The translations under genes were made by a program, and so were the position numbers. From IMG/VR virus record IMGVR_UViG_2713896781_000018: a stretch of 4,083 nt of DNA. One strand, given 5' to 3'. The notes under the pieces are model-generated. The model was not told the origin of the DNA. It was given only the letters and a program-made list of their open reading frames with translations, and did no database searches. How positions within the stretch are numbered: the first letter of the stretch is position 1; every line of letters begins with the position of its first letter. The DNA is from a virus (taxonomy: Duplodnaviria; Heunggongvirae; Uroviricota; Caudoviricetes). This document shows positions 1 to 4,083 of the stretch, piece after piece.

Positions 1-396
1 ACGGTGGAGGTGGATGAGGTTCCTGTTTACCGGCAGAAAAAATCAGAGCAGGAGGATAAACCCCGTCGCCGTGAGGTGGCTGCAATACCACAGCCGGACG
101 AAAAAAATCCGGAGATGCCTCCGCCCGCGGTGATATCTCATGGTATTGAATATATGGAGGATGGTCTTCCCGATCCGGTGAAAGCTATGGGGCAGATCCT
201 GGTGGAAAACCTGATAATTGACCCGAAACTGGCACTGGATGCGGCCTGGCGACTGGCGCAGTTCACACACCATAAAAAAGGCGATGCCGGTAAAAAATCG
301 GCAAAAGGTGATGCCGCGAAAAAAGCGGCTAACCGTTTTGCGGTGCCACCACCTCCCCGACTGGTGGTGAATAACCAGAATGAGGAAAGCGGATGA
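1..396 (+). CDS. Putative phage terminase small subunit, probably 5'-partial (frame open from base 1; first in-window start is GTG at 4)
   Basis: ORF in frame 1 ending at TGA 394-396, which overlaps the ATG (393-395) of the downstream terminase large subunit gene (ATGA coupling). Position directly upstream of terL is typical for terS. C-terminus is lysine-rich and basic (KKGDAGKKSAKGDAAKKAANRF) followed by PPPP. No HTH or other diagnostic motif recognised by eye, so the functional call rests mainly on synteny. Confidence 0.4.
   Translation, partial: TVEVDEVPVYRQKKSEQEDKPRRREVAAIPQPDEKNPEMPPPAVISHGIEYMEDGLPDPVKAMGQILVENLIIDPKLALDAAWRLAQFTHHKKGDAGKKSAKGDAAKKAANRFAVPPPPRLVVNNQNEESG
382..386 (+). 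promoter_or_regulatory. Shine-Dalgarno-like GAGGA upstream of the terminase large subunit start
   Basis: GAGGA at 382-386, 6 nt upstream of ATG 393; lies inside the 3' end of the upstream ORF, consistent with translational coupling. Confidence 0.4.
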
Positions 397-2494
397 TACC
401 TGTATGGAGCACGGCATGTCCGGACTGGGCAGAGCGCCTGAAAAAGGGGCTGTCGATTATTCCGGCTCCGATTTATCCGGACCAGGCTGCACATGCACTG
501 GCGATTTTTAAACAACTGCGGATTGTGGATGCACCGGGTAGCCCGACATTCGGGGAGTCCTGTGCACCGTGGGTGTTTGACCTGGTGGCGGCCCTGTTTG
601 GCTCCTACGATGCGCAGACCGGTGTTCGCCATATCAAGGAAGTGTTTATCCTTATCCCCAAGAAAAACAGTAAGTCCACGCTGGCCGCGGGGATCATGAT
701 GACGGCGCTGTTACTGAACTGGCGGCAGGCGGCGGGCTACACCATTCTGGCCCCGACCGTGGAGGTGGCGGCTAACGCCTTCAACCCTGCCAGGGATATG
801 GTACGACGGGACGATGATCTGGATGACCTCTGTCAGGTGCAGACACATATCCGGACCATCACCCATCGGGTGACGGACACCACCCTGAAGGTGGTGGCAG
901 CCGATCCGAATACGGTGTCCGGTATCAAGNNNNNNNNNNNNNNNNNNNNNNNNNNNNNNNNNNNNNNNNNNNNNNNNNNTTTATCCTTATCCCCAAGAAA
1001 AACTCGAAGTCCACGCTGGCCGCGGGGATCATGATGACTGCACTGTTACTGAACTGGCGGCAGGCGGCGGGTTACACGATTCTGGCCCCGACTGTGGAGG
1101 TGGCGGCCAACGCCTTCAACCCTGCCCGGGATATGGTACGACGTGACGATGATCTGGATGACCTCTGCCAGGTACAGACCCATATCCGGACCATCACCCA
1201 CCGGGTGACGGACACCACCCTGAAGGTGGTGGCAGCCGATCCGAATACGGTGTCCGGTATCAAGNNNNNNNNNNNNNNNNNNNNNNNNNNNNNNNNNNNN
1301 NNNNNNNNNNNNNNGGACACCACCCTGAAGGTGGTGGCAGCCGATCCGAATACGGTGTCCGGTATCAAGTCCGTGGGTACGCTGATTGATGAGTTGTGGC
1401 TGTTTGGCAAGCAGTGCAAGGCGGAGGACATGTTACGTGAAGCCATAGGCGGCCTTGCCTCCCGCCCGGAAGGGTTTGTGGTGTATACGACCACCCAGTC
1501 GAATGAACCGCCCGCCGGGGTGTTCAGACAGAAACTGCAGTACGCCCGGGATGTGCGCGACGGCAAAATTCATGATCCGCACTTTCTGCCGGTGATATTT
1601 GAACACCCTCCTGAAATGGTGGAAAGCGGGGCTAACCTGCTGATGGAAAACCTCGCCATGGTCAATCCGAATCTCGGCTATTCAGTGGATGAGGCCTTTC
1701 TGTACCGGGAGTACCGTAAAGCCCGGGAAGCCGGTGAAGAGACATTCCGGGGGTTCATGTCAAAACACGCCAATGTGGAAATTGGTCTTGCCCTGCGCTC
1801 TGACCGCTGGGCGGGGGCTGATTTCTGGGAAGAGCAGGGCCGTTGTATCAGCCTGGACGATATCCTGCGTCGTGCTGATGTGGTGACGGTGGGGATTGAC
1901 GGCGGGGGCCTGGATGATCTGCTGGGAATGTACGTGACTGGCCGTGACAGGGAAACCCGCGAATGGCTGGGCTGGGGCCATGCCTGGGTGCATGAAACCG
2001 CGGTGGTCAGACGGAAGAGTGAGGCATCCCGGTTTCAGGATTTTGTGGCCTGTGGAGACATGACGATTGTCCGTCGGGTCGGGGATGACACGGCGGAAGT
2101 GGCGGAGTATGTGCGTCGTATTCATGAGGCTGAGTTACTGGATCATATCGGTATTGACCCGTCAGGTGTGGGGCAGATTCTGGATTCACTGGCGGAAGCC
2201 GGGATCCCCGATGAGAGTGTGGTGGGGATAAGCCAGGGCTGGAAACTGGGCGGGGCCATCAAAACCACCGAGCGCAAACTGGCTGAGGGAGTGCTGGTGC
2301 ATGGTGGTCAGCCACTGATGGCCTGGTGCGTTGGCAATGCCCGGGTGGAGCCTAAAGGTAACGCCATTCTTATCACCAAACAGGCCAGCGGACGGGGAAA
2401 AATTGACCCTCTGATGGCGCTCTTCAATGCGGTGTCCCTGATGTCCCTGAATCCGGAACCGAAAAAGAAAGCGTATGAGGTTTTTTTCATATAA
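393..2494 (+). CDS. terL: Phage terminase large subunit (Terminase_1 / HK97-like family), reading frame artificially broken by two 50-N gaps and a duplicated block
   Basis: Translation has a Walker-A-like stretch ([14 protein letters not shown]) in the N-terminal ATPase part and a [10 protein letters not shown] stretch typical of the start of the terminase nuclease domain; stop TAA at 2492-2494. The ORF track splits it into 393..1034 (frame 0) and 1031..2494 (frame 2) only because each N run is 50 nt (not a multiple of 3). Removing one copy of the 285-bp block and the 55-bp overlap gives about 1662 nt (about 553 aa), a normal terL size. Confidence 0.8.
645..929 (+). repeat. Copy 1 of a 285-bp block inside terL (abuts first N gap)
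   Basis: Same length and register as 980-1264. About 15 nucleotide differences in 13 codons, every one synonymous (e.g. AGT/TCG Ser, AGG/CGG Arg, CAT/CAC His); encoded peptide [12 protein letters not shown]...VSGIK is identical in both copies. Confidence 0.85.
930..979. other. Scaffold gap (50 N)
   Basis: Run of exactly 50 N characters. Confidence 0.95.
980..1264 (+). repeat. Copy 2 of the 285-bp terL block (synonymous-variant allele), between the two N gaps
   Basis: Aligns base-for-base with 645-929 apart from synonymous third-position (and one Ser-codon family) differences. Confidence 0.85.
1265..1314. other. Scaffold gap (50 N)
   Basis: Run of exactly 50 N characters. Confidence 0.95.
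1315..1369 (+). repeat. 55-bp exact repeat of the last 55 bp of both 285-bp blocks (contig-end overlap)
   Basis: GGACACCACCCTGAAGGTGGTGGCAGCCGATCCGAATACGGTGTCCGGTATCAAG occurs at 875-929, 1210-1264 and 1315-1369; the third copy runs straight into unique terL sequence. Confidence 0.85.
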
Positions 2495-2518
2495 CCCTGC
2501 TCACCCTGTAACCATCAT

Positions 2519-2540
2519 GAACCGCTGCGGCGGTTTTTTT
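2519..2540 (+). terminator. Candidate weak intrinsic terminator / attenuator hairpin with T-tract between terL and the protease-capsid ORF
   Basis: ACCGC (2521-2525) can pair with GCGGT (2530-2534) around a 4-nt loop (TGCG), extendable by flanking A-T / G-T pairs, followed directly by a run of seven T (2534-2540). Stem is short, so strength is doubtful. Confidence 0.3.
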
Positions 2541-2546
2541 ATTTTC

Positions 2547-2552
2547 AGGAGG
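2547..2552 (+). promoter_or_regulatory. Shine-Dalgarno AGGAGG for the protease-capsid ORF
   Basis: Perfect AGGAGG at 2547-2552, 5 nt upstream of GTG 2558. The ATG at 2556 is followed immediately by an in-frame TGA, so GTG 2558 is the usable start. Confidence 0.6.
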
Positions 2553-2557
2553 CTGAT

Positions 2558-4083
2558 GTGACTCTTAAACGGGCCTGTTCCCTGCTGACGGTGAAATCCT
2601 TCAGTGAGGATGAACGGGTGATCACCGGGATTGCGTCAACGCCTTCTCCGGATCGGGATGGTGACATCCTGGAGCCGGAGGGGGCGGAGTTTGGCAGTAC
2701 GATCCCGTTTCTCTGGCAGCATGACCATTCCCGCCCTGTAGGCCAGTGTACGGTGCGTCGGGTCAGGGAAGGGCTGGAAATCACGGCAATGCTGGTGAAG
2801 CCGGAGCCGGGGATGCCCTCCCAGATGGCAGCCCGGCTGGATGAGGCCTGGGCTGCCATTAAGACCGGGCTGGTCAGGGGGCTTTCTGTGGGCTTCCGGC
2901 CCCATGAATACACTTATCTGGACGGAGGCGGACTGCATTTTCTGCGCTGGGAGCTGATGGAGGTGTCTGCCGTCACCGTGCCCGCGAATGCGGAATGCAC
3001 CATCCGGACCATTAAATATTTCGACCGCCCGTTTTCTGCCGCGTCCGGCAACCGGAGACCGGTGGTGAAAATCGCATCTTCTGCCGGCGCTTCGGCACAG
3101 TCAATAACCTCTTTTCATAAGGAAAAGTCAGCAATGAATACTGGTGAACAGATTAAAAGTTTTGAAAACAAGCGTGCGGCGCTGGCAGCCTCCCTTGAGG
3201 AGATCATGAACAAAGCCGCAGAGGAAGGCCGCACACTGGATGTGGAAGAGGAAGAGCACTACGACAACACCGCAGCGGAAATCCGTCAGGTGGATGCGCA
3301 CCTGAAGCGTCTGCGTGAACTGGAAGCCGGTAAGGCCGCCACGGCACAGCCGGTGAAACAGGCCGGTAACGGGAATGTGGCCACGGTGGCTTCAGCGCCG
3401 GTGATCCGTGTTGAGCAGAAACTGGAGAAGGGGATTGGTTTCGCCCGCTTTGCCAAATCACTGGCCGCGGCTAAAGGTGTCCGCTCTGAAGCCCTGGAAG
3501 TGGCCCGTCGTCAGTATCCGGATGACAGCCGTCTGCATCATGTCCTGAAATCGGCGGTGGGGGCAGGGACCACCACGGACCCACAGTGGGCAGGCAGCCT
3601 GTCTGAATATCAGGAATATGCGCAGGACTTTATTGATTACCTGCGTCCGCAGACCATTATCGGGCGATTTGGTCAGGGCGGGATCCCTGCACTTCGTCTG
3701 GTGCCGTTCAATATCCGCGAGCATGCCCAGGTGTCCGGTGGTGCTGCCGGCTGGGTGGGGGAGGGTAAGGCCAGACCCCTGACGAAGTTTGATTTTGAGT
3801 CCATCACCTTCAGTCATGCGAAGGTGTCGGCCATTGCGGTACTGACGGAAGAGCTGATCCGCTTTTCCAGTCCGGCAGCTGATGCACTGGTCCGTAATGC
3901 GCTGGCAGAAGCGGTGGTGGCGCGTCTGGACACAGACTTTGTGGACCCGAAAAAAGCTGCAGTGGCAGATGTCTCCCCGGCGTCCATCACCCATGATGTG
4001 AAGGGCACGGCATCAACCGGTAACCCGGATGCGGATGCCGAGGCCGCGTTTGGCCAGTTTGTGACGGCAAATCTGCAGCCCAC
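2558..4083 (+). CDS. Prohead protease / major capsid protein fusion (HK97-family prohead serine protease domain N-terminal, HK97-fold major capsid protein C-terminal); 3'-partial, continues beyond window
   Basis: Translated codon by codon from GTG 2558 to base 4083 in frame 2 with no stop; absent from the ORF track, apparently because it has no stop inside the window. N-terminal ~190 aa (MTLKRACSLLTVKSFSEDERVITGIASTPSPDRDGDILEPEGAEF...LWQHDHSRPVG...GLSVGF...) resembles the HK97 prohead protease family with candidate His and Ser motifs. From the in-frame Met at 3134 (MNTGEQIKSFENKRAALAASLEEIMNKAAEEGRTLDVEEEEHYDNTAAEIRQVDAHLKRLRELEAGKA...) it resembles the charged, helical N-terminal delta/scaffolding region of HK97-type capsid proteins, then a capsid body (...AAGWVGEGKARPLTKFDFESITFSHAKVSAIAVLTEELI...). 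Confidence 0.8.
   Translation, partial: MTLKRACSLLTVKSFSEDERVITGIASTPSPDRDGDILEPEGAEFGSTIPFLWQHDHSRPVGQCTVRRVREGLEITAMLVKPEPGMPSQMAARLDEAWAAIKTGLVRGLSVGFRPHEYTYLDGGGLHFLRWELMEVSAVTVPANAECTIRTIKYFDRPFSAASGNRRPVVKIASSAGASAQSITSFHKEKSAMNTGEQIKSFENKRAALAASLEEIMNKAAEEGRTLDVEEEEHYDNTAAEIRQVDAHLKRLRELEAGKAATAQPVKQAGNGNVATVASAPVIRVEQKLEKGIGFARFAKSLAAAKGVRSEALEVARRQYPDDSRLHHVLKSAVGAGTTTDPQWAGSLSEYQEYAQDFIDYLRPQTIIGRFGQGGIPALRLVPFNIREHAQVSGGAAGWVGEGKARPLTKFDFESITFSHAKVSAIAVLTEELIRFSSPAADALVRNALAEAVVARLDTDFVDPKKAAVADVSPASITHDVKGTASTGNPDADAEAAFGQFVTANLQP
3119..3136 (+). promoter_or_regulatory. Internal Shine-Dalgarno-like AAGGA plus in-frame ATG (3134) at the protease/capsid domain boundary; possible independent start for the capsid protein
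   Basis: CATAAGGAAAAGTCAGCAATG: AAGGA at 3119-3123, 10 nt before ATG 3134, which is in frame with the fusion ORF and begins the capsid-like sequence. An out-of-frame TAA sits at 3118-3120 just before the SD, looking like a standard stop-RBS-start gene junction. Confidence 0.35.

Follow-up and report, generated by a model that had tools for sequence, protein, structure and literature searches.

Phage HK97 encodes its prohead protease (gp4) and its major capsid protein (MCP; gp5) as separate adjacent genes downstream of the portal gene; the protease is targeted non-covalently, and the HK97-fold MCP carries an N-terminal helical delta domain of 103 aa. A different arrangement is found in lambda (C/Nu3), herpes simplex virus 1 (HSV-1; UL26/UL26.5) and the archaeal virus HFTV1 (gp17/gp17.5), where protease and scaffold form nested in-frame pairs (HFTV1 preprint) with an N-terminal protease, an internal start giving rise to the C-terminal assembly protein, and a minority of subunits carrying the protease. 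Here we analyse a 4,083-nucleotide (nt) stretch of the IMG/VR virus record IMGVR_UViG_2713896781_000018, hereafter the window, which is a plus-strand portion of a phage head-packaging module and in which protease and MCP share one open reading frame (ORF) upstream of the portal gene. We posit that this gene is expressed as a nested pair, a full-length protease-MCP and an MCP made from an internal start, a reading that the sequence signature at the junction of the two halves makes likely.

Fusions of protease with capsid protein are themselves on record, as an earlier note on this DNA had stated. The head gene of phage BP-4795 is annotated as 'putative major head protein/prohead protease', and ORF003 of Pseudomonas phage PAJU2, which is 48% identical to the present protein over residues 1–642 and has the same architecture with the portal downstream, as 'prohead protease fused capsid protein' or, in UniProt, 'capsid polyprotein'. 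A later paper (PMC8306868), citing Uchiyama et al. 2009, presents the PAJU2 protein as a capsid polyprotein for which autocatalytic cleavage is proposed. The 'major capsid and protease fusion protein' of actinobacteriophages and its counterpart in Rhodobacter RcC phages likewise combine protease and MCP in one ORF, capsid/protease fusion being a standard annotation in both groups, and annotation-level mentions of fusions occur in PMC8601537, PMC8306868 and actinophage announcements.

The gene in the window is a copy of the head gene of Stx-type phages (BP-4795, phage 2851 gp17, Stx2 phage 1717, YYZ-2008 and Stx1a/Stx2c/PPompW prophages), which are 95–99.8% identical to it at both protein and DNA level and share the same 645-aa fused ORF and the same order of HNH, terminase small subunit (TerS), terminase large subunit (TerL), fusion and portal genes. 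None of the Stx-type records compared annotates an internal start. The fusion itself is thus already known, common in this lineage and, taken alone, ordinary.

A single reading frame for protease and capsid

The frame beginning with GTG at 2558 is free of stop codons to the end of the window at 4083 (508 codons) and both of its domains are matched by profiles, so the earlier note was right to describe protease and capsid as one continuous ORF. The frame is absent from the program-made ORF list because it runs off the window end; the complete gene in LC567819 has 1938 nt and encodes 645 aa, with the last 137 codons lying outside the window. No in-frame ATG occurs upstream of GTG 2558 back to the preceding stop. 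Positions 2558–4083 make up the first 508 of 645 codons in the head gene of an E. coli prophage, lambdoid and long-tailed, of the Stx1a/Stx2c/'PPompW' type. The encoded protein starts with a serine protease of HK97 type, which is joined by a disordered linker to a helical scaffolding (delta) domain and, last, an HK97-fold shell domain. Profile searches of the translation placed Peptidase_S78 at aa 48–151 and Phage_capsid at aa 386–463, both above the gathering score, and the domain order and the boundary at 3133/3134 proposed earlier also held, the boundary being the in-frame ATG of Met193 where the delta domain begins.

The gene belongs to the PAJU2/Stx-siphophage type of fusion represented by PHROG 617, as evidenced by both domains, an uninterrupted ORF and full-length homology; the 626-position profile spans both halves (E 6e-80 and 2e-115). 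The NCBIfam model NF045541 ('prohead protease/major capsid protein fusion protein') scored only 52.7 bits against a cut-off of 525, which indicates that it describes another fusion lineage.

Putative translation initiation signals at the junction

The in-frame ATG of Met193 lies 10 nt downstream of a Shine-Dalgarno (SD)-like AAGGA (Table 1), and the ordered helices of the delta domain start directly after it, at residue 195, in an AlphaFold2 (AF2) model. Met193 and Asn194 are invariant in 15 enterobacterial homologues, while the preceding ~20 residues are hypervariable and vary in length. In a MAFFT alignment of 151 representatives at 38–54% identity the Met193 column holds Met in 117 and Val in 12 and stands between gap-rich columns; Val is the residue that an internal GTG start would give at this position.

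Conservation is clearer at the DNA level, for which junctions were collected from 94 relatives. The ORF is continuous in 89 of these, and all 89 have ATG or GTG at the aligned position, four of them after a one- or two-codon shift. The 81 non-identical junctions, on which the following counts are based, have ATG (74) or GTG (7), preceded 5–12 nt upstream (mostly 8–9) by GGA, GGAG or AGGAGG in 71 cases and by AAGGG/AAGGT-type motifs in the remaining 10. The motif takes the form AAGGAGG, CAGGAGGG or GAGGAGGG in alpha-, beta- and gammaproteobacterial contigs and AAAGGAA or AAGGAA in Enterobacterales. All copies of the E. coli type share 'cataaggaaaag' and the ATG but vary in the codons on either side.

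Pairing of the 17 nt upstream of the internal start with the anti-SD sequence has a mean energy of −7.8 kcal/mol, compared with −2.5 at other in-frame codons, and reaches −4 kcal/mol or lower in 98.8% of junctions against a background of 22%. The N-terminal starts of the same genes have a mean SD energy of −7.3 kcal/mol, so that the internal SD is equally strong across this set. The signal also persists at greater distance: in 26 clusters at <60% MCP identity all starts are ATG or GTG, and 25 have an SD of −5 kcal/mol or lower.

The coding register of the junction motif varies between K-G (AAA GGA), K-E (AAG GAA/GAG) and Q/E-E-G (CAG GAG GGC). In the five upstream codons GGA makes up 43% of Gly codons, compared with 6.6% gene-wide, and Glu upstream of the internal start is encoded by GAG in 81% of cases, compared with 52% gene-wide. 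Selection at the motif acts on nucleotides rather than residues. Further evidence for an initiation site comes from mean 40-nt folding energies of −4.5 to −5.9 kcal/mol at the site versus −8 to −11 kcal/mol on its flanks, and from a GC fraction of 0.45 at the internal start versus about 0.6 elsewhere; weaker RNA structure and a GC dip are the usual signature of a genuine initiation region. For the window alone, folding of the two initiation regions gave −10.2 and −6.9 kcal/mol, both inside the range of shuffled sequences.

Fused and unfused relatives

Relatives that encode protease and capsid separately place the capsid start at the same residue. Residue 1 of the stand-alone MCPs P0262 and P0266 aligns to residue 193 of the window protein. 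The two genes lie in different frames in a Pelagibacterium metagenome-assembled genome and in Snodgrassella alvi, and in the same frame with an intervening stop in two IMG/VR contigs and in Burkholderia phage vB_SBP9. In all of these, loci L011, L014 and L108 and vB_SBP9 included, the capsid gene begins at a Met homologous to Met193 (unfused starts MSKFAEQITAFEQKRA... and MTLAEQIKALQEK..., versus MNTGEQIKSFENKRA... in the window protein), which identifies Met193 as the codon from which the capsid gene ancestrally started.

Relatives of 60–78% identity include both fused and unfused forms, the unfused L011 MCP being 78% identical to the fused L010 MCP. In L108 (3083–3088) a TAA is followed immediately by the ATG in the same frame, and in vB_SBP9 (L177 2553–2567) 9 nt separate the stop of the protease gene from an in-frame capsid start, so that both loci are one substitution short of the fused form. 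Such toggling between fused and separate genes is easy to understand if the MCP uses its own start in both states.

The same relatives bear on the alternative that the internal SD and ATG are non-functional remnants dating from a recent loss of the stop codon, or that the SD pauses ribosomes, for instance for folding of the protease, an alternative which we consider very unlikely. A stop-to-sense change suffices where the genes are adjacent and in frame, as in L108 and vB_SBP9, the coexistence of both forms at 60–78% identity would fit recent fusion, and about 8% of random in-frame positions have an SD energy of −6 kcal/mol or lower. Relics are, however, difficult to reconcile with an enterobacterial clade of more than 100 clusters that is uniformly fused, with a linker that has diverged almost completely in sequence and length while GGA and ATG persist, or with the same persistence in the 26 clusters of <60% identity. 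A pause motif, for its part, would need neither a start codon at a fixed distance nor a restriction of substitutions to ATG-to-GTG changes.

Proposed expression as a nested pair

We hypothesise that initiation at GTG 2558 would yield the full-length protease-MCP, which would co-assemble as a capsid subunit and bring the protease, tethered by the linker to the delta domain, into the prohead. The MCP alone, forming the bulk of the shell, would be translated from ATG 3134 with AAGGA 3119–3123 as its SD, and after assembly the protease would remove the delta domains and itself. Loss of the protease stop codon would have added a second, longer product while the capsid protein kept its own ribosome-binding site, and the covalent tether would take over the role that non-covalent targeting plays for HK97 gp4. 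On this evidence the capsid protein is most likely also made alone, and probably in excess. The earlier suggestion that a covalent link carries the protease into the prohead is thus a plausible route, but its corollary of a protease on each subunit of the capsid is probably wrong, given a conserved SD with ATG or GTG at the ancestral capsid start in 81 of 81 junctions.

That corollary amounts to a polyprotein, in which all subunits are full-length, the protease is carried in and then cuts itself and the delta domain away; we regard it as rather unlikely. It accords with the single continuous ORF and its one annotated start, with the description of PAJU2 ORF003 as a capsid polyprotein with proposed autocatalytic cleavage, and with the linker motifs AASG and xGAxx as possible cleavage sites, and by our own estimate it would be sterically feasible. 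It leaves unexplained, however, why a conserved ATG/GTG, an appropriately spaced SD, biased codons and relaxed RNA structure recur across the fused lineages examined, and how close relatives could switch freely between arrangements when each switch would shift the protease:MCP ratio from sub-stoichiometric to 1:1.

Several points weigh against nested expression. The internal SD of the E. coli type is modest (AAGGA, −6.2 kcal/mol, 10-nt spacer) relative to the N-terminal AGGAGG (−10.3 kcal/mol), although the latter serves a GTG codon and the former an ATG, and an excess of the short form is consequently not predictable for this phage from sequence. The junctions are phylogenetically related, so each does not count as a separate event. 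Sampling of relatives favoured fused genes, full-length matches scoring and hence ranking higher by construction, and for this reason the share of fused relatives (89 of the 94 loci and the majority of the 150 best representatives) was rejected as an unbiased frequency. Recurrent recent fusions could have left start signals as relics, as discussed above, and the PAJU2 homologue has been presented in print as a self-cleaving polyprotein. By our own estimate a prohead would have room inside for a 21-kDa protease on each subunit, and a steric argument against that stoichiometry was rejected as not decisive. Finally, a literature search found no ribosome profiling, N-terminal proteomics or sodium dodecyl sulfate-polyacrylamide gel electrophoresis for any member of the family.

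The window has the sequence signature of the known nested pairs, AAGGA at 3119–3123 with ATG at 3134, conserved in 81 of 81 non-identical junctions. Internal-start use has been demonstrated in lambda, herpesviruses and HFTV1, whereas here it is inferred, together with the product ratio and the cleavage events, from sequence. The nested product of those systems is a separate scaffold, whereas here it would be a capsid protein with a built-in scaffold domain rather than a dedicated scaffold, which strictly places the gene outside the lambda C/Nu3 type; by analogy it would nevertheless work like a nested protease/assembly pair. PAJU2 carries the same internal signal, AGGAGGG followed after 6 nt by an ATG at codon 197, with an SD stronger than that of the E. 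coli gene.

Protease, linker and capsid domains

The AF2 model was made on a 95%-identical full-length homologue (mean pLDDT, the predicted local distance difference test score, 77.9) and comprises a compact domain at aa 1–142, disorder at 154–192, long helices at 195–262 with further helices to 331, and then an alpha/beta domain.

The protease half matches Pfam PF04586 (Peptidase_S78; E 6e-8, 33.4 bits versus a cut-off of 21) but falls below the cut-off of the stricter equivalog TIGR01543 (44.6 versus 59 bits), so the protein is an S78 family member without being an equivalog of HK97 gp4. The N-terminal 192 aa are 30% identical to gp4 (BLASTP, E 2e-8), with His55 (codon 2720–2722) aligned to gp4 His65 and Ser110 (codon 2885–2887) to gp4 Ser114, the catalytic pair of the HK97 protease. 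Neither His55 nor Ser110 varies across 34 and across 60 aligned diverged homologues. The modelled domain has a pLDDT of about 85–90 over aa 1–142; a Foldseek search of the Protein Data Bank (PDB) with the full-length model listed 50 matches, all to capsid proteins, so that no protease structure entered the comparison. One IMG/VR relative (L163 2501–2677) has an early in-frame stop within the protease domain, yet its match reaches the capsid end; the gene may be interrupted or a pseudogene, or the stop may be a sequencing error.

The linker is modelled with pLDDT <50 over aa 154–192, and its columns are mostly gaps or variable in both the 151 representatives and the 15 enterobacterial homologues. 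Two short motifs, AASG at aa 161–164 (3038–3049) and xGAxx at aa 176–180 (3083–3097; AGASA, consensus PGASG), are kept in distant relatives and are also found at the C-terminus of unfused proteases (AASGKSVRVVK in L011). They may serve as sites of autocleavage or as a tail that binds the capsid.

The capsid half is an HK97-fold MCP whose predicted N-terminal helical delta domain replaces a separate scaffold, and no scaffold gene was found in the TerL-to-portal interval of annotated relatives. The delta helices form a hairpin at 195–262 (195–223 and 229–262) followed by a helix region at 293–331. Searches with the truncated window protein matched TIGR01554 (major_cap_HK97) over aa 204–463 (E 9e-17, 61.3 versus 27.5 bits), aa 204 corresponding to profile position 3, and Pfam PF05065 with E 1e-6 (28.7 versus 24.2 bits). 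The structural matches were to the Bxb1 capsid (E 1.4e-14, TM-score to target 0.64), HK97 gp5 entries (~1e-10, TM-score to target 0.63–0.75) and the capsids of D3, T5, gene transfer agents (GTA) and capsid-forming phage-inducible chromosomal islands (cf-PICI).

A PDB sequence search returned just one weak capsid match (9d9w, E 0.005) and pairwise BLASTP of the capsid half against HK97 gp5 was not significant, which precludes mapping the maturation cleavage site and the residues of the covalent Lys-Asn cross-links of the HK97 'chainmail'; a weak, non-significant local similarity puts the mature N-terminal region of gp5 near aa 340. The locus thus resembles HK97 in its homologous protease and in an HK97-fold MCP with an N-terminal helical delta domain, and differs in that the delta region, at ~150 aa, is longer.

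Distribution and annotation

Positions 2400–4083 are 99.8% identical to complete E. coli O145 chromosomes, and 1249 of 5426 complete E. coli genomes carry this segment (at least 80% of it at ≥90% identity), with up to seven copies per genome. It is also carried by 92 phage records, among which phages converting for Stx1a, Stx2c or Stx2a and 'PPompW' prophages predominate, and an intact ORF of 640–647 codons is present in 71 of 80 close IMG/VR loci. Fused homologues at 73–77% identity occur throughout Enterobacterales, where the clade is uniformly fused (>100 clusters at 90% identity, 73–100% identical mutually). Beyond it, homologues at 38–54% identity fall into more than a hundred 50%-identity clusters, and the continuous ORF also extends to other proteobacterial classes, in relatives with as little as 34% identity.

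It might be argued that a missing stop or an indel falsely joined two genes in this record, a draft assembly with N-gaps and duplicated segments ~1.3 kb upstream. We give an assembly or sequencing artefact next to no credence, as the same uninterrupted ORF recurs in the 1249 complete genomes, the 92 phage records and the 71 IMG/VR loci, which independently exclude an indel or frameshift at 3000–3140. Comparison with homologous prophages further identified the fused gene as the norm in this lineage, long annotated in Stx phages and PAJU2; the earlier note correctly described such fusions as known, but the rarity it implied does not apply here.

The Prokaryotic Genome Annotation Pipeline (PGAP) calls one 645-aa coding sequence (CDS), and the names in use are 'phage prohead protease', 'phage major capsid protein' and 'major head protein/prohead protease'. 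A few database proteins are longer still: P0001 (1079 aa) joins the fused gene to a TerL ATPase domain, P0003 (784 aa) joins it to a portal domain, and P0123 and P0132 (about 1090 aa) have ~440 extra N-terminal residues. These additional joins are probably artefacts of gene calling or assembly.

Genomic context

The window opens with the two terminase genes and ends within the fused gene (Table 1).

Table 1. Coordinates of features in the 4,083-nt window.
Feature	Position	Strand	Basis or remark
Terminase small subunit gene, C-terminal part	4..396	+	PHROG 641, E 7e-34; annotation of relatives
Terminase large subunit gene (TerL)	393..2494	+	Pfam TerL_ATPase and TerL_nuclease; alignment to TerL of LC567819
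Intrinsic-terminator-like hairpin GAACCGC-TGCG-GCGGTTT with T-run	2519..2545	+	Between TerL stop (2494) and head gene
Shine-Dalgarno AGGAGG of the full-length (protease-MCP) start	2548..2553	+	Anti-SD duplex −10.3 kcal/mol
GTG start codon of the full-length fusion protein	2558..2560	+	Same start as annotated CDS in LC567819 and NZ_CP031353
Prohead serine protease domain, aa 1–156	2558..3025	+	PF04586; similarity to HK97 gp4
Linker, aa 157–192	3026..3133	+	Predicted disordered; hypervariable with indels; short conserved motifs
Internal Shine-Dalgarno-like AAGGA	3119..3123	+	Spacer of 10 nt to ATG 3134
In-frame ATG (Met193), candidate start for capsid protein made alone	3134..3136	+	Homologous to MCP gene starts
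Delta (scaffolding-like) domain, ~aa 193–341	3134..3580	+	AF2; TIGR01554; putative domain end
HK97-fold shell domain, aa ~342–645 in the full protein	3581..4083	+	PF05065; Foldseek

TerL is artificially lengthened by two 50-N gaps (931–980 and 1266–1315) with duplicated flanks. Each run of N is preceded by a repeat of one TerL segment (645–930, 981–1265 and 1316–1370), the copies differ by about a dozen single-nucleotide polymorphisms, and alignment to LC567819 gives an uninterrupted single gene of 1662 nt. This looks like a scaffolding artefact in a draft assembly containing several near-identical prophages. The stretch 2558–4083 is free of both N and duplication.

A terminator-like hairpin lies between TerL and the head gene. 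The scan gave two such sites where chance predicts 1.2, which makes the site weak evidence alone; in HK97 a putative terminator is annotated at the corresponding position, just 5' of the protease gene (L178 3309–3335).

In annotated relatives the head module runs HNH, TerS, TerL, fusion, small ORF, portal, connectors and tail. The portal lies 3' of the protease/capsid gene throughout the family, with one or two small ORFs between (L001 9159–14054; PAJU2, L176 2032–6057; vB_SBP9, L177 2007–5639), whereas the order in HK97 is reversed (portal, protease, capsid). The portal region of one phage record extends over ~2.7 kb with two annotated 'portal' CDS (L001 11308–14054), and in the O145 chromosome (L002 11308–12884) the portal is a frameshifted, incomplete pseudogene followed by an unannotated stretch. 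The region is either a long portal in two parts or the result of a defect that these prophages commonly share.

Implications

Roughly one in four complete E. coli genomes carries the fused gene, whose interest lies in its expression logic. A full-text literature search found no report of an internal start inside a protease-MCP fusion, although an earlier description is possible. We tentatively propose, as a possibility somewhat short of being probable, that the 'polyprotein' genes of this family are in fact nested, with the MCP made mainly from the internal start and the protease borne by a minority of subunits, and that this has so far gone unreported. If true, the label 'polyprotein' would be wrong and annotation as a single CDS, whether protease or capsid, would be incomplete. 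The ratio of the two initiation sites would set the protease dose per prohead, and the free switching between separate and fused genes would be simply explained. HK97-type phages in which the scaffold resides inside the MCP would also join lambda, herpesviruses and an archaeal tailed virus as users of a nested protease/scaffold strategy, which would be further evidence that this virus lineage has an assembly programme in common.

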